Positions 1,937 to 53,728 of a stretch of DNA of 64,000 nt are shown here, in pieces. Positions within the stretch are counted from its first letter, which is position 1; the number at the start of each line of letters is the position of its first letter. The position numbers and the translations under genes were made by a program. The stretch is from positions 307,272,001 to 307,336,000 of the forward strand of contig OZ024742.1 of assembly GCA_964016885.1 (NCBI GenBank). The letters are read 5' to 3'. The DNA comes from Eledone cirrhosa. Its lineage: Eukaryota. Under the pieces are notes generated by a model. The model did no database searches and had not been told where the DNA came from. It was given only the letters and a program-made list of their open reading frames with translations.

Positions 1937-2227
1937 AAATAAAGTTAAATAAAAGTCAAATGATTAAAATTTAGCTTCGTTTATTACTGCTATATATATT
2001 TCAGTGACCGCCATCTTTGGCTGTGACCTCTTCAGGCAGTTTGAATTAGTATGGTATAGACAAGTACATATGTTATTTAGGTGTATGATATTGTCAATAC
2101 TCTGATATGCCCAGTTCCTTGTTGGGTTGTTAATTCACTGGGGAACTGGAGTCATATGAATTCAAACAAACGAATTTTCGTGTCACAGGTCCCCTTCTCC
2201 TCTCATTGGTCAGTTATTAGAACATTC

Positions 2228-2230: not shown

Positions 2231-2297
<67 letters not shown>

Positions 2298-2338
2298 TTC
2301 AAATATTAACAAAATAGATATTCTTGTGATCAATTAAA

Positions 2339-2401
2339 TTTTATTATACATATTTCAGAGGTACTGAATCAAGTTCAACAGTACGTCCTCATCAGATAAA
2401 A
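2339..2401 (-). ncRNA. Hammerhead ribozyme motif (family B, left arm)
   Basis: Minus strand TTTTAT-CTGATGA-GGACGTACTG...CAGTACCTCT-GAAA-TATGTATA-ATAAAA. Confidence 0.8.
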
Positions 2402-2518
2402 TAAAATGATACATGACATACCCTGCATGTTAGATGGTTAAGATTTAATCAAGGTAGATTAATACCTTAATTAAATCTTAACCATCTAACATGTCAGAGT
2501 ATGTCATGTATCATTTTA

Positions 2519-2581
2519 TTTTATCTGATGAAGACGTACTGTTGAACTTGATTCAGTACCTCTGAAATATGTATAATAAAA
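2519..2581 (+). ncRNA. Hammerhead ribozyme motif (family B, right arm)
   Basis: TTTTAT-CTGATGA(2525-2531)-AGACGTACTG...CAGTACCTCT-GAAA(2564-2567)-TATGTATA-ATAAAA; predicted AUA cleavage triplet. Confidence 0.8.
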
Positions 2582-2718
2582 TTTAATTGATCACAAGAAT
2601 ATCTATTTTGTTAATATTTGAATTAATATTAATAACTCTGGAAAATAACCGCTGTAAAGTGCTTCCAATCTACTGTAAAACTCATTCTTTGATGTACTCA
2701 TTGAATCTTGTTTAACTC

Positions 2719-2754
<36 letters not shown>

Positions 2755-3740: not shown

Positions 3741-3745
<5 letters not shown>

Positions 3746-3952
3746 AACAAGTATGATCCCGACGGCAGAGCTCAAGCCGTTTCGACGACTAATTCTCCTG
3801 AGAATTAGCCGTCGAAACGGCTTGAGCTCTGCCGTCGGGGTCATACTTGTTCCTATTACCCACTCTACTACCCTAAGTATTGAGTACTTTGGTGCGTTAT
3901 GGTCCAGATGGACCATAACGCACCAAAGTCCTTATCACATTTCCTTCGTTTT
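3741..3952. mobile_element. Palindromic mini-PLE (family E): arms 3741-3856; tail contains a second hairpin at 3886-3929
   Basis: Arms match the terminal repeat of the Naiad-type PLE at 38971-41311 and the palindrome at 44472-44578. Confidence 0.85.
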
Positions 3953-4312: not shown

Positions 4313-6368
4313 TAGACATGCGCTATCCCGTCCAGGTCCATCCATGACAACCTCCACCTCATGCGATACATCATAGAGAGGGTTGGGAACGAACCCGGCT
4401 TTGGTGGGGCTCTGATCAACTTGGATCAATCTAAGGCGTTCGATAGGGTCGACCATGGTTACCTGGATGCGGTGCTAGCGGCGGCAGGCTTCGGACCCGT
4501 TTTCAGGGGCTGGATCACTGCTATGCACAGCAGCCGCATCTGCTCTAGGGTCAAGGTGAGCGGCTACCTCTCGGAGCCGTTCAAAATCGCGCGGTCCATC
4601 CGACAAGGGTGCCCTCTCTCCTCCCTTCTGTATGTGTTGACTCTCGAGCCACTACTGCGGAAGTTGGAGTTGTTGCAGGGCATCCCTTTGGAACCGGGAT
4701 TGCGGAAAGCGGTGTCAGCCTACGCCGATGATGTGACAGTAATGGTGTCGACGGCCTCCGAAATCGAGGCGGTCGGCACCTTACTGGAGGAGTACGAAAA
4801 GTTCACAGGGGCTAAGCTGAACCGGGACAAGTCGATCGGTTTGCAACTCGGCACGTGGAGGGGCAGACCGATGCCCTCTGATGGCGTCGTCGGACGCTGG
4901 ACGGAGGGCCCGGTGAAGTTGCTCGGGGTCTGGTTCGGACCGGACCTCCAGGTGGAGAAAAACTGGGCGGAGGTTACGAACAGGGTGTTTGCACTGACCC
5001 AGAAGTGGGCCAGTTGCAAACTATCCCTGAAAGGTCGGGCGGAGGTGGCGAACACTTATATAGCGTCCGTCATCTACTACCGCCTGACCGTAGTGCCCTG
5101 CCCAAGGGAAACCCTCACCAAGATGGAGCGCGCGCTCTTCTAATTCCTTTGGAAGGGGCGGGCTCCTATGGTGAGGAGATCCATCTGCTGTCAACACCCT
5201 TCGAAAGGAGGGCTGGGGATGCCGTGGCTAATGATGCGTAAACACGCATTAAGGCTACGGCACCTCTACGTATTCCTCACCGGACAACCGGTGTGGGCCC
5301 CGTTTGTGAGACGAACCTTTCCCAGACTCGTCTCACTCACCGAACTGCAATCCTGGGTCAAGCAGAGACCGAGAAAACTGGGCGCCTGGCACACTGAGTG
5401 TGCCCAGGCGCTCACCGCCCTCTGGCAGGCGGATCCGGTTATCAGTGGAGACTCCACCGCAACATTCTATAGAGGGCTGGTACGCAGCAGGTGCGACGAC
5501 GCCCTCGGAGAAGCCCTAGACATGGAGGAGGACGAACTGGCCAGCCTGTTCGGTAGGACATTCAGCCCGGGACCTATGGACAACTTCCAGAAGTCCCTGG
5601 CCTGGCAGTGCTACCGAGGGGCTTCACCCGTTCGAGAAAGGCTCTACAGACACGGGCGCCCGGGTAGGGACCCCGCCAAAAAGATCTGTCCCAGATGCGT
5701 GTGCGACGAGGAAACCGTTGCACACGCATTGGTACACTGCTCGGGCGTAGCCGATCTGTGGGGCTATGTCGAACAACTGCTGTCAAGGGTGGGACCGATC
5801 CGGTTGACCACCGAGTCTATTGTAATGATCAAGCCGCCTCCCCCCTTCAAAGATGAAGCAGAGGCGGTGTTTCTGTGCGTAATAGCCATGGCGAAAGAGG
5901 TTGTATGGTGGACGCGTCTGAAAGGACTGAGGTCGGGCGCCTTTCTCTCTGGCCAACAACTGGTCCGTTTCTTCCGATATCATTTCGGAAGAAGGATCAG
6001 GATGGAGAGAGAGGTGCTGCACCCCAGTCGTTTTTATGAAAGGTGGGTGAAAGTGGCGAGAATGGCCCGTGTGAATGGGCCTTCTCTTTACATAAGCCTG
6101 TAGGTGGAAAAGAGGAAGGAACGAGGGAGCACCCCCTCTCTGTGCTCCTGAGGAAAAGGGTTGCACACTTTTTTCGGGGGTGTGTGCGACCCCCCAAGGC
6201 GCCTCCTCTCTATTGAGGATTTTGTTAAAAATTTTATTTTTTGTTATATCTTATTTTATTTTTATATTTTGTTATTGCCTCCTCCTTATTGAGGACGCCT
6301 TTTTGTGTAAACTCCCCCCTTTGTACTTGTCCCACTTTTGATGCCCTAGTGGCAAATAAAAGAAACTT
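4313..6368 (+). mobile_element. 5'-truncated L1/Tx1-clade LINE: RT, CCHC zinc knuckle and 3' UTR
   Basis: LDQSKAFDRVDH, RQGCPLS, AYADD, GGLG, CPRC...HALVHC; a single in-frame TAA at 5141-5143; AATAAA at 6355; inserted in (TA)n/(TATC)n. Confidence 0.9.
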
Positions 6369-22778: not shown

Positions 22779-22833
<55 letters not shown>

Positions 22834-22837
<4 letters not shown>

Positions 22838-24218
22838 AAATACGTCCCTCATCAGTGATTTGCCGAAGATCATAGATATTTCATTGCATTAAAAATCATA
22901 TATCTCACTTCGGTACGATAATAACCAAAATAAGTTATTAGGACAATTAAAACGCGTAAAGCGAGTGAGACAGGAGAACAACAGAAAAGATAGTATAACG
23001 TTGGAGAGAAACAAGCTTCAAAAATTATTCTGTTAGCGTAAGCTAGGTGAATATATGAGCGCTAGGGAAAGAATAGTCCAGCACGAACGAAGGCCATTGA
23101 GCAGAGAGATCATATAGATTTTTAATGCAATGAAATATCTATGATCTTCGGCAAATCACTGATGAGGGACGTATTTTATTACATGTTACCATGTGCTACC
23201 TGCAGTATTTTTCTCTATATTTTAATACATATATTTACCACTGCGATTCTGTGTTTTTTTCTCTCTCTCTTACTGTTCCCCCATTCTCTCTGTTTCTCCC
23301 CCTCTGTCTTGTCCGTTAACTCTTCCTCACACTTTCACTCACTCACTGTTTTTCTCCCTCTTCTCTTCATTTCATCCTGCACTCACGGACGCTATTTTTT
23401 CTCTCTCTGCTCAATGGCCTTCGTTCGTGCTGGACTATTCTTTCCCTAGCGCTCATATATTCACCTAGCTTACGCTAACAGAATAATTTTTGAAGCTTGT
23501 TTCTCTCCCACGGTATGCTATCTTTTCTGTTGTTCTCCTGTCTCACTCGCTTTACGCGTTTTAATTGTCCTAATAACTTATTTTGGTTATTATTGCACCG
23601 AAGTGAGATATATGATTTTTAATGCAATGAAATATCTATGATCTTCGGCAAATCACTGATGAGGGACGTATTTTATTACATGTTACCATGTGCTACCTGC
23701 AGTATTTTTCTCTATATTTTAATACATATATTTACCACTGCGATTCTGTGTTTTTTTCTCTCTCTCTTACTGTTCCCCCATTCTCTCTGTTTCTCCCCCT
23801 CTGTCTTGTCCGTTAACTCTTCCTCACACTTTCACTCACTCACTGTTTTTCTCCCTCTTCTCTTCATTTCATCCTGCACTCACGGACGTTATTTTTTCTC
23901 TCTCTGCTCAATGGCCTTCGTTCGTGCTGGACTATTCTTTCCCTAGCGCTCATATATTCACCTAGCTTACGCTAACAGAATAATTTTTGAAGCTTGTTTC
24001 TCTCCCACGGTATGCTATCTTTTCTGTTGTTCTCCTGTCTCACTCGCTTTACGCGTTTTAATTGTCCTAATAACTTATTTTGGTTATTATTGCACCGAAG
24101 TGAGATATATGATTTTTAATGCAATGAAATATCTATGATCTTCGGCAAATCACTGATGAGGGACGTATTTTATTACATGTTACCATGTGCTACCTGCAGT
24201 ATTTTTCTCTATATTTTA

Positions 24219-24225
<7 letters not shown>
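22834..24225 (+). mobile_element. 497-bp tandem non-coding element (family F): inverted partial copy 22834-23108, then about 2.2 tandem units, flanked by (TA)n
   Basis: Identical 102-aa pseudo-ORFs 497 bp apart (23141 and 23638); third start at about 24135; left block is the reverse complement of about 23400-23677. Confidence 0.85.
23124..23175 (+). ncRNA. Candidate permuted (type II-like) hammerhead in each family F unit (also 23629-23662, 24126-24159; minus 22849-22882)
   Basis: GAAA-TATC-TA-TGAT-CTTCGG-CAA-ATCA-CTGATGA-GGG; stem I capped by a cUUCGg tetraloop; stem II pairing weak. Confidence 0.45.
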
Positions 24226-25319: not shown

Positions 25320-25788
25320 ATACAATATCGGAGAAAGCTTTTTAGCGATACTCCGGCCAAATTCCAACTCACTCAACAAACATTAGGAAATAAGTGATTA
25401 TATTCCCAATTATACGTTCGGGGTGCTAACTAAAAGTATTGCGTGGAAAATTGGCTGTATTATTTCATATGAGACATATCTAATATATCTCTTCCCAGAC
25501 GGACGTCTCGTTTCATTATAGGATTCCTACAATTTGGGTGAAATTATACCAATTTATGTAGGAGCTGTATACCATCAATAGATATATATTCAAGTGGGCT
25601 CCTATAATTCATCAGTGGGTGCCCCAATAATACTAATATTGATAATCTAACCAACATCAGTATTTAGCGATAATCACCATCCTCTATGCCTGAGGTATCT
25701 GTCAGGTTGCCAGTCCAGCAGTTTTAAAGAAGTGCTCAAACTGATTAAAAAAATGAGGAAGTAAATTACCGCCAAAAAAACAATACAT

Positions 25789-25819
<31 letters not shown>

Positions 25820-25823
<4 letters not shown>

Positions 25824-27220
25824 AGCGGGTGGTGAGATCACGAATAACCCACTTTCTTGAAAGCAACGGCCTGCTGAACTCCAACCAACATGGATTCCGT
25901 AATGGAAGGGACTGCCTAACGCAGCTCCTGCATCACTTTGACGATGTTTTGAGAGCCTTGGGAGAGGGCTCCAACACTGATGTCATCTACCTTGATTTCA
26001 GCAAGGCCTTTGATCATAAGATTCTACTGAAAAAACTATCTAATGTTGGTGTCTCTGGAAGGTTACTACAGTGGATCAAATGTTTCCTGACAGGCAGAAA
26101 CCAGCATGTTGTAGTCGAAGGAGTAAAATCAAGCCCTGCCAATGTCAACAGTGGCGTCCCACAAGGCACTGTGTTGGCACACTTCTTTTCATCATCTACA
26201 TTAATGACATTACTGACATCATCAAACACAGTAACATCAGAATCTTCGCTGATGATTCCAAGCACCAAAGGGTCATCAATGAGGTGGGTGACCGGACTTG
26301 CCTTCAGTCAGACCTACTGGCTGTTATCCAATGCGCAGAGATGAATAATATGCTGTTGAATGAGGATAAATTTGAACTAATCCACTTTGGAAAAAAGGAT
26401 GCCCTGAAACTACCATACTCTCTTCCTTCGGGTGAAACTCTAGTGGCTTCCAATAACATCAGAGACTTGGGAGTAATTGTGGACAACAATATAAGCTGGG
26501 CCACTCATATAAACAGCAAAGTTGATATGGCCCGCAGAATGTGTTCCTGGATTCTCAGAACTTTCCAGTCGAGAGATATCCACACTGTTGTCCTGCTCTT
26601 CTCCACTTTTGCCCGACTCCACCTTGAATACTGTTGTCCACTGTGGTCACCCCACACGAAACAAAGTATCATGAAAGTTGAAGCACCCCAAAGGTCAATT
26701 ACAAAAAAGATAGTTGGCATGATAGGCCTTGACTATTGGGGTCGATTAGAAAAGCTCAAACTTTATTCTCTTCAACGTCGCCGTGAGCGCTACATTATCT
26801 GTATGATGTGGAAAATATTCCATCAGCTTAGCCCAAATGATGCTGGCATCACCTTTAGTGTACACCCAAGGCTTGGGGCCCGTGCTATCCACCCACGACA
26901 AAAATCCCTCTCGCATCACATAACAACAATACGGCACAATTATTTCACCTCAATTGGCCCTGCACTCTTTAACATTACACCAAAACACATCAAAGCAGAG
27001 ACAGACCCCATCAAGTTCAAGAAGTCTTTGGATAAATTCCTTCAAGAAATCCCGGATAAGCCTCCTACACCCGGATATGCCTCCGTAAACAATAACTCTC
27101 TGCTCGAGTGGGCCATGGTGCCCAAACACTGATTTGTAAGACTTCGCCAGGTGGTGCTATTAAGTTAGACATGGCCTGGGCCAATACTGGCTGAAACCTA
27201 TCAAAGTTATCAAAGTTATA
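25820..27220 (+). mobile_element. 5'-truncated CR1-group LINE RT with a frameshift, inserted in (TA)n
   Basis: QHGFRNGRDC, YLDFSKAFD, SGVPQGTVL, IFADD, DLGVIVD, LEYCCPLWSPH, YSLQRRRER; tandem 3' tail TATCAAAGT. Confidence 0.9.
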
Positions 27221-31593: not shown

Positions 31594-32650
31594 TCAATGG
31601 GACCCTTGAACTTTATGGAGTCTAGCTAACTCTTTGACGCCAGGCTGGATTTTCGTAAGATGTAGCCGGTGATCTCCACATGTAATTACATTGTAGCGGT
31701 TGCGAGCCTTACTGTGCAGTCTGGAAACAGCACCAAACCTCCTCTTGACTAAGTATGAGCTTGGAAAAGGCAGAGAAAATCTCTTAGCCTCTGCATATAG
31801 GTGTGGAAATCGACGCTGAATTTCCTCTTGTATCCAAAAAAGGGGTTCACCTATTTTGGGAAATCTAATTTTGATCATGTCATCTGCTTGAAGTTCAATG
31901 AATTCTTTCTGAAATATAACGTCCAAATCATCAACGTTAGCTATGAAGGGATATGCTACCCACATTGGGATGTCCATCGGCAAAAGGTCGACAAACAGTT
32001 CTCCCATGTTGTCTTGTAGCGCACGGAAGCGAGCGGTATAAATCTGGAGTTGGTCATCGCTTACAATGTTTTGAACATTGGCGACACTAGGAAAATTATA
32101 AAATTCCCGTCCACAAAGATTCCTTTCGATGACATTCAATTTGGCCAGGAATGTTTTTCACAGCATTCCTTGCTTTAACCAAGGTGATCTTCTTCCCCTG
32201 CAAAGCCAAAATGACGCTATTGCATTTGTCGACGATGTCGGTGAGGTAGGCGCAGTTTTGCCTCACATCGAGGGTTTTCTTGTACAATTCTGTGTTGCGT
32301 CCTTGCAGAAACTCAATGATAGAGACGAACAGTTCAAAGAAGTGAGTAAGGCACTTGCCCTTTGAAAGCCACCTCACTTCATTATGAAGGAGAAACTTGA
32401 CAAATTCTTCGTCATTATCTTGGCACAGTTGCCGGAAAATTCGTTCATTGAGGGAATGCCGTTTGATAAAATTGATGACATCAAGGGCCACCTGCAAGGA
32501 CTTGCTCAGCGGCTTGCTGAGTTTCTTCGCAGCCAAGTGTTGTCGATGAATGACACAATGAACAACAAATACAGATAGATTTTCTCTCTTCAGAAGAGTG
32601 ACGAAACCCTTATGTTGGCCGACCATTGCTATTGCGTCGTCCGTAGCACA
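31594..32650 (-). pseudogene. hAT transposase C-terminal half (Charlie/Buster family), frameshifted near 32130
   Basis: TDDAIAMVG, HCVIHRQHLAAK, EVRWLSKG, FPSSYLV, ending GSH. Confidence 0.85.
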
Positions 32651-32654
32651 TGAT

Positions 32655-33180
32655 ACAATGTGTGTTGTATTTGGTCCTAGATGTATATATTACCTGCATG
32701 TGTGTTGTAGGTAGTCCTAGATGTATGTATTACCTGCTTATGTATTGCATGTGGTCCCAGCTGTATGTATTACCTGCTTGTGTGTTGTATGTGGTCCTAG
32801 ATGTGTGTATTACCTCCTTATGTGTTGTATGTAGTCCTAGATGTATGTATTACCTGATTATGTGTTGTATGTGGTCCTAGATGTGTGTATTACCTGATTA
32901 TGTGTTGTATGTGGTCCTAAATGTATGTATTACCTGCTTGTGTGTTGTATGTGTCCTAGATGTGTGTATTACCTGCTTATGTGTTGTATGTGGTCCTAGA
33001 TGTATGTATTACCTGATTATGTGTTGTATGTGGTCCTAGATGTTTGTATTACCTGATTATGTGTTGTATGTGGTCCTAGATGTTTGTATTACCTGCTTAT
33101 GTGTTGTATGTGGTCTTAAATGTATATATTACCTGCTTGTGTGTTGTGTGTGGTCCTAGATGTGTGTGCTACCCGCTTCT
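32655..33180. repeat. 40-bp minisatellite, about 13 copies, inside the hAT element
   Basis: Unit TGTGTTGTATGTGGTCCTAGATGTATGTATTACCTGCTTA. Confidence 0.9.
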
Positions 33181-34468: not shown

Positions 34469-34924
34469 TTTCGAATATTAATAATAACATTCGATTCGTT
34501 TGCAATTTTGCAAACAAGCCTCAATTTTATATATATATACATTGCGAGGTGTGTCTGCTTCAGATGTTACTGGGTGGTGTTTTTCGTCCCCGCTCGTCTG
34601 GTGTCTCAGTCTTGTAAGTCAAGGATACGAAACACCAAGTAGCAGCTCATGTAGCTGTAGGTTTCAATAAAGAAAAATATTACTCTACTCTAAGGAGCAT
34701 TTAGTTATCCCTCACTCTGCATAATTCTATTTCTAGTTGTGTATGTGTGTGTGTGTGTATTGGCATATATATATATAATGTAGGAGGTGATTTTTATTGT
34801 AGTACAATAAAGCAATGCAGATATCGGATAAGAAGCACTCTACAGTTTGTAGGACTGGAGTATACATAATATATAAGATCAACTGACACCAATTCCTTCA
34901 CCTATTTTGGAGTATACAGAATAT

Positions 34925-36420
34925 ATAAGATAACTGACACCAATTCCTTCACCTATTTTGGCTCCACTTCCACCTCCTTTAAAGCTCGTCTTTATAATCA
35001 TCATTCGTCTTTTAAATACCAACTTAAAAGAACCAACACGGCTCTCTCAAAACTCATATGGTCCTTGAAAGACAAAAATATTAAATATAACATCTCTTGG
35101 AAAAAGGTTTCTTCTGCTTCGCCATACTTGAACAGTTCTCTATCCAAGACTTGCAATCTCTGTCTAAATAAAAAATTTACCATTATATCTAATTTAGATT
35201 CTATAATAAATAGACGCACTGACTTGTTTTCTCTCTGCTTGCATACATTCCACAGAACATTCCATAAAGTATACAGCTAATATCCAAAATTTTATCAATT
35301 CAGAATCCTTTTCTCAAAGGCACATATATATATATATATAATTCTTTAAAAATATACCCATCTTTCTACCTTATTTCAAAGTTATTTATTATACATTATA
35401 TAATACTTGTTACTCATTCTATATCACTCCTATTATCACTTCCCTTTCTTCCTTTTCCTTTTCTTTTCTTTTTCTTTTAATTTCTAACCCCTAATCTGTA
35501 CCTTTTCTCACTGTGCCTAACATAGAAACAATTATTACACAATACAATATATTCTTACTTTATATCACCTTGAAAAAATCCTTCGTAAGCAAACATTTTT
35601 TTGACGTTAGATTATTCATCCTCAATTCATTATTTTTTTCTCACTTTCATATTTCATCCTATCTTCTACTTTTTTCACAATATATCCTTACTTACATTAC
35701 CTTTGCTATTTTTAATAATACATATCAACATTTCCTTTCCATCGCACATATTATTAAACCCTTAAATATTATTCTTAATACATATTAACAATTTTTTTCC
35801 ATCGCACATATTATTAAACCCTTAAATATTATTCTTAATACATATTAACAATTTCTTTTCATCGCACATATTATTAAACCCTTCAATATACAAACCTTAA
35901 CTTTACATTATTTTTCTCTTCGTTAATTTTCAAATTCTTTTAATTTATACATTATCTTCCAACGGTTTTTCAACCTCTCTATGTAAAACAATATATTTTT
36001 CTCAGTTATAAAAGCTATCTCTCTCTCTCTATCACCCATCTCTCCTCCTATCTCATCCTTCCTCATTATACTCCTCCCACTCCACTTTTTACTCTCATCT
36101 CCTCCTCTTTTTCATCCTTTCCAACTCCCCCTCTCCTCCTATCTCATCCTTCCTCATTATACTCCTCCCCCTTTACTTTTTACTCTCATCTCCTCCTCTT
36201 TTTCATCCTTTCCAACCTCCCACCCCCCCTCAACATTTTTTTCCCCCCAATATCACACATCAATCTAAATCTACTTTTCACATGTTGATTTAAAACTGCA
36301 CTATCCACAAGTGTTTTTTAACCTTCACATCATGTCTTCCTATTTTATCTGATGAAAATACAAATGTTATTGCATGATGATATTTGTTTTTGAAATGCGC
36401 ATAATAAAATACATGTAACT
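34925..36420 (+). mobile_element. 5'-truncated Naiad-type Penelope-like element: GIY-YIG C-terminal part, long 3' UTR and HHR
   Basis: YFGSTSTSFKARLYNHHSSF...TALSKLIWSLKD...WK...CNLCL...INRRTDLFSLC. Confidence 0.75.
36341..36411 (+). ncRNA. Hammerhead ribozyme at the PLE 3' end
   Basis: TATTTTAT-CTGATGA-AAATACAAATGTTA...TGATATTTGTTTTT-GAAA-TGCGCA-TA-ATAAAATA; 8-bp stem I, palindromic stem III ATGCGCAT. Confidence 0.85.
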
Positions 36421-38926: not shown

Positions 38927-38970
<44 letters not shown>

Positions 38971-38975
<5 letters not shown>

Positions 38976-41310
38976 AAAAAGTATGACCCTGACGGCAGAG
39001 CTCAAGCCGTTTCGACGGCTACTTCTGGACTAAATTAGAATTTTTAGCCTGGTGAATAAATAGCCGGACTTGTCAAGGGGGTACTTCCTTATATGGGAAG
39101 ATTGTAGTTGTCAAGAGGATTGGTTAAAATTTGTTGTAAACACAAATAAGTCTATCATGGCATTTTGGTGGGAGGTAGGGGTGGCTGAACTTGCCTGTAG
39201 AACAATAGGGGAGTGACAGGAGCGGTCAAGCGTTGAAAGTGATATGTATACAGCAGATTCTAAGGATAGTGTATGAAGTGGAGGAGGGAGGTTATAGAAT
39301 AGGTAAATCGAATGAGAGTAGGAGACAATAAAAGATAATAGAAATAAATAAAAAATATATAAAATTAGATAGTAAGAAATGAATAAAAAAAATTACAATG
39401 CTATCTTACAATTAGAGGTTAATAAGTTGAGAATAGAAAAAACTTGTAGAAATTGAGTAGTAACAAAACTGATACAAATTAAGGGGTTTAACACATCTGC
39501 TATAAGTAGTTAGTAAAACGTAATCGGCCAATTCTATCTTAAAATTACAGGGGTGGGGGAACTGATGCTACAGAGGCCCGATGGGCTGCATCGGGGTAGG
39601 CGAAAGGGGAAGAAAATAGGGGGTGGAAGGAAGTGATAGGATGAGACAGGGGGAAGAAGAAGACAAAGAGGAAAAGAAAAGAGATACATCTACCTATGTA
39701 AGCTGAGGTTTCCGCTAACTTATTCGGCAAGTGTGTGTGAGTGGGGGGGGGGTATCAGCCTTTGTCTAGCCACCCGGGTCGTTATGGGGTTTGAGGGTGA
39801 GGTAAGTCCTACGCAATCTGTGTTTGCATGCAGTTACCAGTTCGTCTTTCTTGTTTAGGAGTTGGTCCTTCGAAAACGGTACTTGTAATGTTTCCTCCGA
39901 GCATAAGTTACACGGACGGCGTCCTCCCGCGTAAGAGTTAGCTCTGGACAGTAAGCTCCAAGTGAGATTTTAGGTTATATTATTATCTTGGAGGTCCCAG
40001 ATGTGGCCCGAAAGAGTAGTGGCATGTCGCCGGAACGGGTTTCGGAAAGTATGTCGGTGTTGGTAGAGCCGGATCTTGAAGTAACACGCGGTTAATCCTA
40101 TATAAGCTTTGTTGGAGGTGTCCGTCCTCGCGTTGCACTGGTAGATCACGTTACGTTCTCGGCATTTGTTGTTGAGGGGGCACGTAGATCTATCAGGGCA
40201 GTTACACCTCCTGGTCGGCTCTCCACTGATGTCTAGGTTATTTCTTCCATAGGGGTTAAGTTTTTTTGTTGTTTGAGGAGACGATGTTTTGTGCGAAGCT
40301 TGGTGTGGTGCTGTAGTAGAGTTTGATGGTGTTTTTGTTGAATATGTTGTGGTAGCGGTGTTGTAGTGGGAAGTGTTTTTCGAGGAGTCTAAAGAAGACT
40401 TTCCCGATAGGTGTTGCCACCTCGGCATTATGGGGAGGATTGAACCACGTTACGTTGCGTTAGCGGCGGTGTCGCCTGCTGGTTCCGCTAAGGGAAACTG
40501 AATAAAAGGATATTTCCTCTCGGAAGCCACTTCGCTTGAGGACCTGGTTGTAATGAGGCGCGTGTTCGTCGAATATCTGCTCATTAGCGGACAAACGAGA
40601 TATGCGGAGGAAGATGTTTTTAACCAGGTTATTTGTGATGTTTCTAGGATGGTTAGAGCGGCGGTGGATGTAGTGCAGGTTGTCCTTTGGTTTCCTGTTT
40701 GGGTAGTACAGATCAATTTCGAGGTTAAGGGTAACGTCCAGGAAATTGACTCGGGTTAGGGACGTTTGTAGGGTGATTTTAAATCCCCAGTCCCGGAAGA
40801 AGTTGATTAGTTGTTTACGGACCCGGTCTGTACTACTGGGGTTGTACTCTTTGAGAGCGAGGAGCCCAGCATGCCGGTACAATCTACCGCCGAATGCAGG
40901 AAACATTTCGGTGAGTTTAAATAGTAGGAATAATCCAATAAGATCTGTGATCTCGGCCGAATCCGTCGCGCCTATACTGACCGCTCCACTCTCCCCCTAT
41001 TGTTCTACAGGCAAGTTCAGCCACCCCTACCTCCCACCAAATGCCATGATAGACTTATTTGTGTTTACAACAAATTTGAACCAATCCTCTTGACAACTAC
41101 AATCTTCCCATATAAGGAAGTACCCCCTTGACAAGTTCGGCTATTTATTCACCAGGCTAAACATTCTAATTTAGTCCAGAAATAGCCGTCGAAAGGGCTT
41201 GAGCTCTGCCGTCGGGGTCATACTTTTTCCCATTTCCCACTCTACTACCCTAAGTATTGAGTACTCTGGTGCGTTATGGTCCATCTGGTTCCTTACCACA
41301 ATTCCTTTGT

Positions 41311-44395: not shown

Positions 44396-44575
44396 CGAAT
44401 GAATTGTGGTAAGGAACCAGATGGACCATAACGCACTAGAGTACTCAATACTTAGGGTAGTAGAGTAGGTAATAGGAAAAGGTATGACCCCGACGGCAGA
44501 GCTCAAGCCGTTTCGACGGCTATTTATGGACCGTCGAAACGGCTTGAGCTCTGCTGTCGGGGTCATACCTTTTCC

Positions 44576-44956: not shown

Positions 44957-47900
44957 TTGAGTTCGTCTGTGTCGACGTCGCAGAACTCCAGCTCACTCTC
45001 AATGCGAGTAACAATAACAACAACAACCACAGTGGTAATAATAGAAATAATACATGTAGCAACATTAATGATAGACACAGCAACAACAACAACAAAAACA
45101 AGAAACATAATAAAAGTAACAACCACAATGGTAGAAATAACAGTAACAACAACAATAACGGTGGAGAAAACAACAACAATACATCTAACAATCACAGCAA
45201 CAATACATCTAGCAATCATAACAATAATAATAATGTTAATGATAGGAACAACAACAACCACCATAATAACAATAATAGCAACACACACAACTATGACGAT
45301 GGATATAATGACAATCCCTTAGAGAAACTATTCTTCAATCCAGCTGACAAAACATATAAGATGGGTAATATCTATCCTACGAGGTTACCCTTTAATAAAA
45401 GGGTTTGTATACCACAACAAATAGATGACGAGACAGAGGCACAGTTCACCATAGCTAGAAATAAGATTAGACAAAGAGTAGACCGGTATACTAAGAGACA
45501 AAGCAGACCAGAGGTCCAACAACTTGGGAGGAAACCTGTAGAAGGCTTGGTTAGCCTCAAGCAGCGCACAAGGGATGGTGAGGTAGTATGTCTACCCACT
45601 GATAAATCTGGTAGGATGTCAATAGACAGCATGCCGAACTACATCAAGGCTATGAAACCCCACATCACCAATACGAGCGAAATTGCATAGCAAATACATG
45701 ATGGGAGAGAGAAAATCCTCAACGCTCACATGATGATGTGGACCGACATCCTAAAGCCAAGCAGATGCACTGCCAACAACTTCCAGGCGTCTAACAATGG
45801 CATACCACCCTTGTATGGACTCCGCAAAGACCATAAGACAGTCGACGACCCGACAACAGGACCACCAACAAGACCTGTATGTGGAGCAAATATAGCTAGC
45901 AACTACAGGTCCTCCTACTTCCTCTCAATGGTTATACGCCCCATAATCAAGATGTCCCCATAGGTATGTGACAGTACAGAGGACCTCCTCAGCAGAATCA
46001 GTGAGTACAACAAAAACAAAAACCTATGCAACTGCATAATAGGCAGTATGGATGTGGTATCACCGTACCCATCCATTAACATTGATTTTGCTGCTGTGGA
46101 AAAATGTGTGGAGATGATCATTGAGAATGAGGTGGAGTTCTGCGACGTCGACACAGACGAACTGGGCCTCCTACTTAGACTTACCTATGACACTGACTAC
46201 CCAGACAGCCATGACCATAGACGTTTCTGCCCCAGTAGACCCAGAAGAGGTAGACCCCCCCCCCCCCCACCATAACCTCAATGTCAAAAAAGACTCCCAT
46301 GGGAAGGTGGATTGGGTGTACCAAAGCTATACGGACCCCCCCAAAACAATGATCAGGTAAGAAAAATGGTCGCACATGCAATATGGGATAGTATCAAAAC
46401 TACCCTAAAGGGCCACATATTCAAATTCAACGAGAAGATCTACACCCAAAATGAAGGAGCAGCCATTGGCGTCAGCATAGCTGGTGACGTTGCCAAACTT
46501 TTTATGGTATGGTGGGAAAGGAGACTCAAAGATCTCCTTGATGAGAGCTCCATAGACCTCATCATGTACTCTCGTTACGTAGATGACATCAATATAGTAA
46601 TAAGAACACCCCCACTAGAGAGTACTAACAAGTTTGATTTAGAACGTAGCACAATGGAAAGCATCCAGCAGATAGCTAATTCCATACACCAGAGTATAAC
46701 TGTAACTATCGACTACCCTTCCAAACACCCTAACAATAGACTGCGTGTATTAGACATGGAACTCTGGATTAACACTATAGAAAAGAGAGCCCAAATTCTC
46801 CACTCACACTACGCTAAACCCATGGCCTCCAAATACCTGATACTCAAAACCTCAGCAATGTCCAGTAGTGCTAAGTTTAATATTCTGATCGCAGACTTGG
46901 TACGAGTGATGAAGAACGTGTCCCGCATGTGCGACCCAACAGAAATGGAATGAAACATCCAACACTTCATCAACCGCATGCAGTTCTCTGGCTACAACCA
47001 AAGAGCCAGAATAAGAGTATACGAAGGAGCCACGGAGAAGTATAAGACCCTCATAGAACTGGACATGAAAGGAATTTGCCCATTATACAGGAGCAAATCA
47101 TGGAATAGTTTAGATAGGACTAGATATAAGATAGGGAAAGCCACCTCATGGTACGATAATCAGAGATACCAGAGTGTCATGTTTGTGGACGCTACCCCTG
47201 GAGGAAAATTAGCTAACCAGTGTAGAAAGGCCCTGACAAAGACCCATTAAACATTAAGGTGGTAGAAAAGCCAGGAACCACCATAAAATCCCTGATCAGC
47301 AAAACCTACCCTTTTAAGAAAACCCACTGTACTAATAGGAAATGTATTAGATGTAAAATAAAACCCCGGATAAACTGTAAAACTAGAAACGTAGTCTATA
47401 GCATAAGATGTACAGAGGGTACTTTCAGAAACATGACAACAACATACATAGGCGAGACAGCTCGTAGCATAGGTGAAAGGATAGACCAACACTGGGGAGA
47501 ACTAAAAGGACGAAAAATGGTTCAGTACTATACGAACATGCCAGACAACAACACGACGGTAACATAGACAACATAGAAATTAGAATAATATCTAAACATA
47601 GAAATGACCCAGCAGATAGGCAAATCAGAGAGGCCAGCGAAATAGAACTTAGAAGGCCAAGGCTAAACAAAAAAAAATGAATGAAATAACAACAACACCC
47701 AAACAAACAATACTGACCTAAGAGAAGTATAAATAAATACATACACAAGCACAATAACAACAAACACATATAAACACACACTAGTAAACTAAGATAGAAT
47801 ACAATAACCAATACACAGTCACCCAAACACGAACACACATCAAACACTATACACACGCGCAAACGCATGCGTAGAGAAGACAAAAATAAATAAATAAATA

Positions 47901-48197
47901 GATAAACAGACTAAATAAAGATGGCGTAGGCATACAATACAACAGGAGGAAACATAATAGCACCACTGACGATGTTGCAGATGTGCAAAGAAAGAACTTT
48001 GTTAGACTATATATATGTGTTTGTGTCTATATTATATCTGTATTTTTGACCGTTGGTCAGTCAATGGTAACATTGAGGACCGAATAAATTAAATTAACCG
48101 ATATAAAAGACACAGAAGCGAAAACCAACCAAACAGTGAATGTGTTCTGTTATTAATTCTGGCAATATTATTACACAAATATGACCCTCCCCAAGTA

Positions 48198-48203
<6 letters not shown>
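44957..48203 (+). mobile_element. Near full-length decayed Penelope-like element: RT, Cys knuckle, GIY-YIG and 3' repeat with HHR
   Basis: PTDKSGR, PPLYGLRKDHK, PTRPVC, SMDVVSPYPSI, QNEGAAIG, YSRYVDD, VLDMEL, CTNRKCIRC...C, VVYSIRC...YIGETARS; multiple stops and frameshifts. Confidence 0.9.
47961..48003 (+). ncRNA. Hammerhead motif in the PLE 3' repeat (weak stem I)
   Basis: CA-CTGACGA-TGTTGCA GATG TGCAAA-GAAA-GAAC-TT-TG. Confidence 0.6.
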
Positions 48204-48235
<32 letters not shown>

Positions 48236-48359
48236 CACACACACACATATATGTGTATACATGTGAGTTTAAACACACACACACACACATATATACATAT
48301 ATGTGTGTGTGTATACATGTGGGTTTACACACACATACACACGCACATATATATATACA

Positions 48360-49295
48360 TAATATCATAAACCCTACCACTATAAGACTGTCATACTCTA
48401 CAGCGTTAAACCTCGAACAACACATAAAAAAGATCAATACTAGAAGGTTAAACGAAAACACTAAAAACTTAAGTACAAAGAACACAAAAAAAACAGTAGA
48501 CAATACACTACAGAACATAAATAAACCACACCTAAGTTCGTCCGCAATACTACTCCAGAGTAAACCTAACTACAAAACCAACGTACACAACTGTAACTGC
48601 ACCTATCCTGACAATTGCCCCCTCGGCAATAACTGCCTGGAAAAAAATATCATCTATATGTGTACCATTGAATCCGGAGGCAACGAGTGGTATTACGTGG
48701 GATCAACGGCAACATCGTTTAAATCTCGATTATATAGGCATTCTTACTCAATAAAACACCAGAGCCAAAGAAATGTAACAACTTTAGCAGAAAAAGCTTG
48801 GACGCTCAGGGATAGCGATCAAAAGTTTACCCTAAAATGGGAGAAATTAGCTAAAGCCCAAAGCTTTTCCAGGAGCCAAAATTTCTGCAAATTGTGTAAT
48901 CTTGAGATTTATTACATAATCACACACAAGAAGAAATTGCTTAATAACAGAATTGAACGAACATTATTCTGCCGCCACCGAACTAAAACCCTTTTTTCCC
49001 ACTACAAGCTGAATATTACATAAAGAGGGACATCCCCCCAACTATATAAACCTCAATCTAGTTAGAAAAATATAAAAACAATCTCTTCTCAACATATATA
49101 TGTATATTAATAAAATTAAATTACCACACTAATAATGGAAAGATATGCTGATGAGAATAGGTGCGAATATGCTATAATGAATGTGTCTAAAAGCGACCAT
49201 ATGTATGTATATATGTGAAAATGTATATAAATAAGTAAATATATATATATGTTTGATGTGTATAGTTAGATGTATGTGTATTCATGTATTAAAGT

Positions 49296-50191: not shown

Positions 50192-53100
50192 AGGATGTTT
50201 ATACATGCATAACTCCACGCAATTATTTGCATGTAGAAAAAAAAATTACATGGGCATCTGATGATTGAAAGTTGCCAAAGAATGTGTATTTCAATGGGAA
50301 GTTCGCTGCTTCACTACACCATGACTAAGTAATCTATATTACTATCACCCTTCTCTTTATAACTCACAACCATTTATTTGGATTCACCTGGTGCTGAAAA
50401 GTAATAACAATTACATCAACAATAATGATGAGTGTGCCCATCGGAAAAATATTGTTTTTTTATAACATTGCATACGAAGCTATTTATTGGAAATGGTTAT
50501 ATTTATATAAAACAATTGCATGGCAAATCTTTGTAAGAACCTTTGTTCAATTATGTTCAACACACCAAATATATGACACGAATTTGTTATTTTACTAAAT
50601 CCCTCCAAAGTCTGAAAATTATAAGTAGTGTCTTTCCCAAGAAACATGGGAACGAAAGGATTAATGAATTTTGTGATTCTCTATTAGAATTTTGTGATTC
50701 TTTATTATTGTCAATAACTACATATCTGATACACCTTACTGACTATGATGTTGTCACAAAGAAATACTCCAAAGAAACAACGAAACAACGGCAGTAATGA
50801 AAGACATTTTAAAAAGAAAATATAGAGATACAGAAACAGTCCTAGCTTTACACACATAATAAGAAACTGTCCATTACTGACTATTGAACCTTATATGTAC
50901 AATTGAAGAAATTCGATGTTTTTCCAGACCTATGGCTTCAGACTTCACCAGACTTAGTTACATAAGACAACCGAATCTAGAATTGTTACGAAAACTTCAA
51001 AGCGGTTACAACTACTTCCTAATTCGTAAACACGACTATTATTATATAAGCCAAAAGCAACAAATGTGTGCCAAAGCGAAATTAAATTGTTGTGGCCGTC
51101 TCTTGTAAGAGCAAGAACCATATTGTCAGAGGAGTGTTGCGTTGTCTTTTTTGTCCCTCCTCAAACTAGACGGGCTGTTTCTGCGGGAGATGAACAGGAA
51201 AGCGAATAATTGCGTGGGATTTGTCAGGCATTTTGAATTCAAGCAATCTCCACATTCTTTCTGGAGCACTCACATATCTGGCATCTAGAAAATTCTTGAT
51301 TTCATCATGAATTATGACTTGCTGTCAGTTGCTTCGCTGATGTTTACAGTTATGGAATCATAGCCTTTGTATATGTATTTATACACATATTTCACTGAGT
51401 GGATGAAGGCGCAAATTTCTAGATTGACGTGGCAGTTGATATTTGTTATAAGGTACAACATATCGGTTGTCTACTACTTTCGGACAACGTTCAATGTTGA
51501 ACTCGGACGTCTTCTGGGGGATAGATAACTATCTCGGGTTTTAAAGGTTTTCTGTTGAAATTGTTTGGGAAAGTCTTTTGAGCAGTTGTTATTTTCCATG
51601 CATGGCGCGTTAGAGTTTTTCTCTCCCAGTGCATTACTGGTACTTTATTTTATCGACCCCGTAAGAATGAAAGGCAAAGCTAACCTCGGTGGGATTTGAA
51701 CTCAGAACGTATAGGGCCGTAACTCTATTCTGTAACTTTATGCAACACTATTATTAATAATAAAAGTTACTATAGTTATGATGAGTGCCGTTGTATTAGG
51801 ATTGTTCCTTGTTGGACAAGTAATTTCGCCAACGAAGTCAACTGACTATAAATTGCTTGTCTAGTTTGAGGAGGGACAAAAAAGACAAGTGCTAGAAAGA
51901 GCTGCGCAACGCAACACTCCTCTGACAATATGGTTCTTGCAAAATGATGAAAATGCAAGACGATATCTATATGTAGACAACCCTTATTATCTCTACAAAA
52001 CCCAGCAGATTTTTCTTCTTAGATGGCTCTGGTAGTACAGGAAAAATGTACCTCTACAGTACCTTGATATCGCATTTGAGTCGTCAAGGAAAGAGTGTTC
52101 TCTCATTTGCTACAACAGGCATTGTGGCTGATCTATTGCACCAAGAAAGAACTGTACACAGTGGCTGATCTATTGCACCAAGAAAGAACTGTACACAGTG
52201 GCTTTAATCTCCCAGTCCCTATCTTGGAAAACTCTACATCACCAACGAAGATTCCATCACAGCGCTCTGAAACATTAAAATTAGCTGACCTAATAATAAT
52301 TGATGAGGCATCAATGCTTTCAGGAAATGCATTGAGTTGCTTTGATCTACTGCTAAAGGAAATAATTGTTTCTACTTTTGGCAGAAGGCCAGCAATTACC
52401 CAGTGTATTACTGGTACTTTATTTTATCGACCCGGTAAGGATGAAAGGCAAAGTTAACCTCGGTGGGATTTGAACTCAGAATGGCAAGGGCCGTAACTCT
52501 ATGCGTCAAAGCATGGTGTCCGACCCTCTACCGATACTGCCAATCCATCGCCATTGCTAAAGGAAATAATTGTTTCTACTTTTGGCACAAGGCCAGCAAT
52601 TACCCAGTACATTACTGGTACTTTATTTTATCGACCCCGTAAGGATGAAAGGCAAAAGAAATAATGAACTGCCATAAGCCTTTCGGCGGTAAGGTTCTCT
52701 TTCTTGGAGTGACTTTAGGTAAACTGCGCCGGTTATTCTGAGAGGGTCAAATGCTGCTATAATTGAATCTTCTACCAAATATTCTCCTCTGTGGACAGAT
52801 GTGACAATTTTTACTTTAACTGAGAATATGCGAATAAATGGACAAGAAGAATTCACCGCATGGCTTCTTAGCATAGGAAATGGAACAGTCACTAATGATG
52901 TCGGCTTAGATGAAGATCTAATAAAAATACGTGAAACCATGATTTCATCTGGAAATTTGATAAGAGACATATTTGGCGACGACATTTCTGTAGTAAGTAT
53001 CGGAGATATTGATGAAACTTCAACAAAAATTATTTACTAAAAGATAAAGATTCAATCGAACTGAATATCAAGATATCACTTCTAGATATAGACTTACAGA

Positions 53101-53728
53101 TATATGAAAGTGTTGATGTGCTGGTTGACGAAAGTGCCGAGAATATCATGAATTATCCGGAAGAGTATTTGAATTATCTGATGCCGTTAGGCATGCCCCC
53201 ATATAATCTAGCACCGAAGAAAAATTCCATTGTGATGTTGCTGAGAGATTTGGATCCTGCTAATGGCTTGCTGAATAGTACTCGATTTTTGGTTTTATTT
53301 TCTAATGAATCTTATATTCATGTAATAATCATTACTGACAGTAAAAAAGGAAATGAAGCTTATATACCACGTCCGAGTGAAACAGATCTACCCTTCAATA
53401 TGAGTAGACTGCAGTTCCCTGTGATACCAACTTTTGCCATGACCATAAACAAATCACAAGGACAGAGCCTCAAAAAAAGTTGGTATTTACTTGCCACCTT
53501 CCATAGTCAGTCATGGCCAGCTTTATGTGGCCTTAAGTTGTACAAGAAGGAAGGAAAACTTAAAAATTCTTTTGAAGGAAACAAGCAGTCAAGGCACATT
53601 AGTTGTAGAAACTTTTCACAAAAACATTTGTAATAAAAGAATTATTAAACTAAAAACTTGGTTTTGTACCCTTTTTATATATAAAATACTACAATTAACG
53701 TCATTTTTGACGGCACGGAGCCAGCTAG
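50190..53728 (+). mobile_element. Decayed, rearranged Helitron (5' boundary uncertain)
   Basis: PIF1 motifs DGSGSTGK, IIIDEASM, PFGGK, LTENMR, RLQFPV..FAMTINKSQGQSL, SHGQLYVALS; 3' end GGCACGGAGCC hairpin followed by CTAG|T; Rep-like segment inverted at about 51100-51625. Confidence 0.8.
52367..52657 (-). mobile_element. Full SINE plus a truncated tandem copy inserted in the Helitron helicase
   Basis: TSD TGCTAAAGGAAATAAT repeated; helicase frame resumes as EIMNCHKPFGGK. Confidence 0.85.

Follow-up and report, generated by a model that had tools for sequence, protein, structure and literature searches.

Penelope-like retroelements (PLEs) have a published anatomy that combines an inverted, 5'-truncated copy, a one-sided tail, a (TA)n target, and a hammerhead in the pseudo-LTR, according to the accessible portions of PMC8557442, PMC4209133, and PMC3846280. 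Within this group, the Hydra clade (for example, Penelope-13_HM and Hydra-1_Obim) encodes a reverse transcriptase (RT) followed by a GIY-YIG domain, with DKT, CxCX5C, and CxxC/CxH motifs and no CCHH, and its members use (TA)n targets and have a pseudo-LTR hammerhead and a 5'-truncated inverted copy at the 5' end (PMC8557442, clade description). In Adineta vaga, Pen2a_Av and its relatives possess a head-to-head inverted pseudo-LTR with a tail on one end, for which self-priming on an antisense template has been proposed (Arkhipova et al. 2013, PMC3846280, available text). The Poseidon element PAc of Anolis carolinensis was studied in vitro (Frangieh et al. 2024, PMC11167929), and in the available text of that study the PLE protein cuts and extends both target strands and starts at two internal sites bounding the tail; the hammerhead is protein assisted, is uncleaved in the template, and its cleavage is dispensable for insertion in vitro. 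PLE hammerheads with a palindromic helix III have a type I topology and a long helix II, seem built for dimers, and cleave poorly in vitro, and pairs of motifs on opposite strands 100 to 700 bp apart also occur (Cervera and De la Pena 2014, PMC4209133, in the part available). Motifs with a weak helix III are likewise described as cleaving better as dimers (PMC7229834, available portion).

The locus described here compares closely with these systems. Its near-perfect palindrome (2296 to 2624) consists of two 162-bp arms, with 3 substitutions and 1 indel between them, that flank a 5-nt spacer, and to judge from its sequence it is the stub of a Hydra-type PLE inserted in a TA microsatellite. The arms, the hammerhead core in each of them, and the tail on the right arm only had all been recognized in the preliminary description, and our analysis reproduced them (Table 1). 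The arms point away from each other, and the ribozyme arm comes second on either strand. Both outer ends of the insertion adjoin (TA)n. Positions along the right arm are given below as q, the window position minus 2459; on this scale the left arm begins at q3 and the right arm at q4.

TABLE 1 Features of the palindromic insertion and its flanks. Positions refer to the window, i.e., the whole 64-kb stretch of DNA that was analyzed
Feature	Positions	Strand	Basis or remark
(TA)n target microsatellite, left	2231..2294	.	Sequence; sister copies likewise end in (TA)n
Left arm: tail-less pseudo-LTR copy, from one base past the inferred transcription start to end site A	2296..2457	-	
Left-arm hammerhead motif	2338..2402	-	Core 2395-2389 + 2356-2353; predicted cut between 2345 and 2344
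Head-to-head junction spacer, 5 nt	2458..2462	.	Junction letters vary among copies
Right arm: pseudo-LTR copy, starting two bases past the inferred transcription start	2463..2624	+	
Right-arm hammerhead motif	2518..2582	+	Helix I 2518-2524/2576-2582; core 2525-2531 + 2564-2567
Right-arm hammerhead helix III, self-complementary	2567-2574	+	Predicted cut after 2575
A/T tract with end site A; tail-less arms pass into (TA)n here	2622..2634	+	Sister copies
97-nt tail between end sites A and B	2625..2721	+	Sister copies
Small hairpin past site A (stems of 4 and 3 bp separated by a 2-nt bulge)	2635..2663	+	Pattern search
(TA)n target microsatellite, right	2723..2752	.	Sequence

The assignment to a PLE is supported by other copies in the 3.0-Gb genome. 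A query with the right arm and tail returned 2,827 first-look candidates, and one ribozyme 22-mer is present 6,203 times, distributed over subfamilies that are 77 to 96% like the reference. This locus is one of thousands of PLE stubs and is ordinary by itself. The 30 loci that were fetched have a common end point, lie nearly all in TA-rich sequence, and differ on their 5' sides. In longer copies, ~1.5 kb of noncoding sequence is found upstream of the same end, preceded by an open reading frame (ORF) with RT and GIY-YIG motifs, and the palindrome-type end is joined to this ORF and the 3' UTR in most of 20 ORF-bearing copies. One copy, L058, is a full partial tandem with a unit of 4,116 bp and the order inverted 1.85-kb 3'-end copy, pseudo-LTR, tail, start codon, ORF, UTR, pseudo-LTR, and tail; partial tandems with both pseudo-LTRs were also found in L059, L072, and 10 further copies. 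The 5' truncation and the adjacent inverted, 5'-truncated copy typical of PLEs are present. In subfamilies L179, L194, L195, L206, and L208, as well as in L182, L197, and L200, the ribozyme and both end sites are common and the sequence upstream of q39 or q-90 is different.

The motifs read from the translations are DKT, a CxCX5C linker, and CxxC and CxH around E and N, and CCHH is absent. This combination is the definition of the Hydra clade in the available text of PMC8557442 and indicates a match to it, an assignment made from motifs and by-eye comparison with published Hydra proteins. The (TA)n insertion and the hammerhead, both Hydra features, are present as well. Support from Pfam is weak: the ORF pieces gave only GIY-YIG at an E value of 0.005, below the cutoff, Pfam returned no RT family for two RT pieces, and a PDB search gave no match. 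Atlas neighbors at 0.91 to 0.95 carry GIY-YIG (20%, 45%) and RVT_1 (16%, 56%). The element also departs from the described Hydra members in several respects. Its 4.1-kb unit with a ~1.5-kb 3' UTR exceeds both the descriptive norm of <3 kb, which is not strict, and the consensus lengths of 1.1 to 3.0 kb listed in the accessible part of PMC8557442; RWR stands at the expected N-terminal place of RWK (L066); and the tail has 97 nt rather than the published 30 to 40 nt. Unlike in the listed Hydra motifs, the 8 nt of helix III form a perfect self-complementary stretch of even length, and helix II is laid out as 3 bp, a mismatch, and 6 bp. The tail of Pen2a_Av is likewise shorter, at 31 bp (PMC3846280, available text).

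The arms of this family end at one of two fixed positions, site A in the A/T tract or site B 97 nt beyond it, and the two arms of a locus use opposite sites. Of 40 short palindromes retrieved without the tail in the query, the script scored 36 as A/B and inspection raised this to 37, the tail being one-sided in 37; the remaining ones, by inspection, comprised one A with a broken tail, one B/B, and one without a call. L089, a palindrome with the tail on both arms, is the single clear departure from the opposite-site rule; its arms share rare variants. When 30 loci were selected with the tail only, the inverted partner ended at A in 21 (18 by alignment, 2 by eye, and 1 via a longer fetch) and at B in none, with 3 loci lacking a call and 6 lacking a partner. 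The 30 ribozyme matches that come first in genome order included 13 callable pairs, and 21 ORF-bearing loci included 10; all of these pairs were A/B. The locus sets behind these counts overlap in part. In addition, the ends of long copies were predicted in writing from the end of the inverted partner ~4 kb away, and 11 of 11 predictions were correct (20 loci were fetched, of which 4 had no 3' end in range and 5 were without a prediction).

Arm divergence was 2.3% within a locus versus 5.1% between loci, and 112 of 246 variant sites were common to both arms, compared to 25 in shuffled pairs, a pattern that also fits fold-back or later gene conversion. As read from these variants, both arms of a locus derive from one template. 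A strand-biased G>A change (cDNA deamination), prompted by four G>A changes in the copy at 2296 to 2721, was rejected: arm-private G>A changes numbered 19 on 21 G columns versus 13 C>T on 19 C columns, with no clusters.

The A/T tract of site A is directly followed by a small hairpin with a variable loop. Full-length copies have a twin of it directly past the A/T tract of site B, 97 nt from the first. In these copies the tail continues into the second hairpin, and the start codon of the ORF follows 63 nt later. Other families carry the small hairpin with different inner pairs. The hairpin pattern, of which the pairing is a part, matched 5 times in the window versus 0.6 times per shuffled window; in the copy described here, a substitution at 2657 disrupts one outer pair. 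The hairpins may position the RT or protein, and the TA end of the target may pair with the A/U tract before the hairpin. This arrangement differs from the PAc start site, which is inside the ORF and not homologous to the cut DNA: the sites here are A/U tracts that could pair with (TA)n, located before the ORF and ahead of a repeated hairpin. That the two sites are used oppositely within a single insertion is not mentioned in the available text on PAc (PMC11167929). Neither the opposite-site rule nor the twin hairpins nor the start-site boundary described below was found in the open-access literature, and searches there for the extra G at this boundary or for a PLE structure gave nothing relevant apart from the papers cited here.

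The 5' ends of the arms show a sharp boundary. A 23-mer starting at q2 was preceded by a nonnative base in 618 of 1,924 exact matches (about one third), compared to 37 at a control position two bases upstream and 23 four bases downstream, the last being a count without a denominator. Twenty-eight of 30 sampled cases were true junctions, in which the preceding base was G in 12, T in 15, and A in 1, although about half of the 12 extra-G junctions are readable as partner-arm letters; in a hand count, G was the preceding base in 39 of the first 100 listed cases. Solo arms likewise begin at q2, an A. The first base of TATAAA lies 31 nt upstream of it, and q0 to q4 read TCACT, the same as the initiator-like motif of the rotifer PLE, where the TATA box lies ~20 bp before it (PMC3846280, available text). 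This suggests that q2 is a capped transcription start. The main caveat is the position of q2 at the border of a native 7-bp inverted repeat, since this repeat could shape the junctions on its own.

In contrast, none of 27 mapped ORF-bearing copies started at q2; their starts ranged from -734 to +236, and 3 of the 30 copies were unmapped. A capped, unit-length mRNA as the sole template is ruled out by these copies, which run through q2. As they do not stop there, long copies need a more-than-unit template, either a tandem read-through RNA or a circle, the latter being proposed in the available part of PMC4209133. The two pseudo-LTRs of one copy were 2.8% apart (n = 13) versus 8.7% between copies. 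Together with the opposite end sites, the 5' boundary of the stubs and its contrast with the long copies point to two template pools and to two primings on one RNA. In 30 tail-selected loci there was no peak of 5' ends at the hammerhead cut site, and the junctions near this site sit at the helix III palindrome.

We consider it probable that the stub arose from both target strands, each priming on the same element RNA, at A and at B, and that the resulting cDNAs were joined head to head. The element protein would cut both strands of (TA)n, and the 3' end on each strand would then start reverse transcription of that RNA, at A for one strand and at B for the other. At the 5' end of the capped transcript the cDNAs would run out after ~165 and ~260 nt, and these two short products would be joined near the likely start of the RNA. 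The observations that enter this scheme are the link to an ORF with RT and GIY-YIG, the two fixed end sites, their opposite use, the common template, and the sharp 5' boundary. Two-strand priming agrees with the in vitro behavior of PAc, in which both target strands are extended from two internal starts (PMC11167929, available text). A wider reading, which we put forward tentatively and hold to be rather doubtful as a whole, treats the stubs as a fossil record: a dimeric protein would cut both (TA)n strands and prime each in a telomerase-like manner on an A/U tract next to either of the twin hairpins of one RNA, capped linear RNA would yield short head-to-head stubs ending at the cap, and long or more-than-unit copies would come from a template without a 5' end there, most simply a circle produced by hammerhead cleavage in both pseudo-LTRs. 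The family matters for how PLEs form inverted ends, optional tails, and more-than-unit copies and for the role of their hammerheads, as it supplies exact coordinates for two start sites, two hairpins, a putative transcription start, and a predicted circle junction.

The preliminary description called the motif a canonical hammerhead, which holds for its core (CUGAUGA/GAAA/UH) but not for its fold, as helix III has 2 bp within the self-complementary 8-mer and helix I consists of A-U pairs only. A scan for hammerhead cores gave 4 matches in the window versus 0.02 per shuffled window. None of the Rfam hammerhead families matched at the gathering score or at an E value of ≤10, and sub-threshold Rfam matches to miRNA precursors were dismissed as generic hairpin matches. 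The fully self-complementary 8-mer of helix III, a feature not demanded by the scan, was also present in 20 of 24 other distinct motifs in the DNA sampled. Across nine sequences of four families, 95.7% of the cells were paired and 12 of 18 pairs had changed on both sides, a level that 0 of 500 shuffles attained; the scan that found the motifs had itself required helix I and three initial pairs of helix II. Covariation thus backs a predicted conserved type I core with three helices, and the motif is a dimer-type hammerhead rather than a canonical one. Relative to the hammerheads in the available part of PMC4209133, positions 9 and 10.1 have no additional base between them, and helix II opens with G-U or A-U rather than G-C.

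The computed cost of the active monomer fold was +5.7 kcal/mol, so that it is disfavored even without the antisense arm. A failed cleavage of a single arm, which had been named as a refutation, would therefore be misleading, since a dimer or the element protein is reportedly needed (PMC4209133 and PMC11167929, available portions). The hammerhead is the pseudo-LTR ribozyme of the element itself and is likely active as a dimer of two same-sense copies. The two motifs of the palindrome are on opposite strands and therefore cannot form such a dimer in one RNA, and in the stub at 2296 to 2721 the hammerhead is a passenger. Two other repeat families in the window also have hammerheads, at 1982 to 2044 (-) and 36341 to 36411 (+), which share this helix II layout and the self-complementarity of helix III; the second lies ~1 kb below a GIY-YIG fragment (34870 to 35280).

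The whole palindrome stretch folds as a single hairpin of -250 kcal/mol (z = -29; 0 of 100 shuffles match), and within it the computed cost of the active ribozyme fold is +95 kcal/mol. The self-inhibition proposed in the preliminary description is therefore upheld for a read-through RNA of both arms but not as a dedicated switch, the hairpin being the standard inverted-end product of PLEs. The long hairpin would not form unless transcription from outside crosses both arms, and it is likely a by-product rather than a switch. Such a read-through RNA is a plausible ADAR substrate by the general rule given in the available text of 10.1101/2020.01.19.911685. More broadly, the family supplies many perfect 330-bp hairpins, and any of them crossed by host transcription would become an ADAR or small-RNA substrate. 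One long host ORF that encodes a galactosyltransferase domain (PF01762; E = 9e-36) lies ~4 to 5 kb left of the window start (L118, 6215 to 4998, minus strand); its upstream region faces the palindrome and is no more than a possible source of read-through.

Three other explanations were weighed against two-strand priming. In fold-back or self-priming, one cDNA, or the antisense template proposed in the available part of PMC3846280, would fold onto itself at a short native inverted repeat and copy itself, with the second arm being trimmed at A by the endonuclease. Apart from being a published proposal, this would account for the near-identical arms within a locus, for the 12 of 122 arms that end in a junction reproducing the native 7-bp stem-loop, and for other junctions at the helix III palindrome. 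However, the arms of long copies are not mirrored from the center (in L058, the inner end of the partner lies ~1.7 kb upstream of the sense copy start), and the opposite-site rule is nonetheless kept over 4 kb. Moreover, of 11 one-tailed stem-loop junctions, 3 have the loop on the tail-less arm, a product that one tail-primed cDNA could give only with a later flip, and solo arms share the start base. We regard fold-back as unlikely.

A functional, self-inhibiting ribozyme hairpin, transcribed at the locus and retained because it keeps the ribozyme silent and supplies ADAR or Dicer, appears very improbable. The exclusion of the active fold inside the palindrome would suit it, as would the possible read-through from the upstream region of the minus-strand galactosyltransferase ORF ~6 kb to the left and the status of young repeats as the main ADAR targets in animals (10.1101/2020.01.19.911685, available text). 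Yet copies vary in the length of their arms, in the spacer, and in whether they have a partner at all, the short arms have no TATA box, and the monomer fold is disfavored in any case. Arm-private A>G changes were not in excess (15 on 50 A columns versus 15 T>C on 61 T columns), a comparison that bears on template RNAs only. Bidirectional transcription from the palindrome center was set aside, as the short arms are without a TATA box. A MITE-like nonautonomous DNA transposon or a retrozyme moving as a palindromic unit is, in our judgment, slightly more remote still. The many similar-sized copies speak for it, 40 of 40 scored matches being palindromes of 300 to 337 bp, but the query itself imposed this size. 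Long copies have an RT ORF fused to this end, and for a MITE-like unit it is also adverse that junctions differ in almost every copy and that the tail is one-sided. Retrozymes are described in the available portion of PMC7229834 as head-to-tail tandem repeats, which for the non-LTR type measure 150 to 450 bp and have no coding partner, whereas the pair here is head to head. The accessible text of 10.64898/2026.07.22.740005 ties animal retrozymes to PLE pseudo-LTRs; the PLE family at 2296 to 2721 is not a tandem retrozyme.

Related structures and other mobile elements occur elsewhere in the window. A frequent palindrome-plus-tail family with only the GAAAC half of the hammerhead and the same small tail hairpin is represented at 3745 to 3900, 38970 to 39165, 41040 to 41270, and 44456 to 44540, and it flanks a PLE-type RT and GIY-YIG fragment at 39970 to 40996. 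A head-to-head unit of a different family lies in (TA)n at 22830 to 24220; it consists of a 280-bp inverted arm followed by two tandem 497-bp units, with a CUGAUGA core in each 497-bp unit and a tail on the long arm. A non-LTR retrotransposon RT (Pfam RVT_1; E = 8e-19) with its C-terminal region is encoded in G+C-rich sequence at 4316 to 6103 (+). Further mobile-element fragments, read by eye from translations as PLE-like RT, GIY-YIG, LINE RT, hAT-like transposase, and Helitron-like helicase, are located at 46276 to 46953 (+), 48157 to 49023 (+), 25757 to 27132 (+), 31594 to 32689 (-), and 52080 to 53633 (+).
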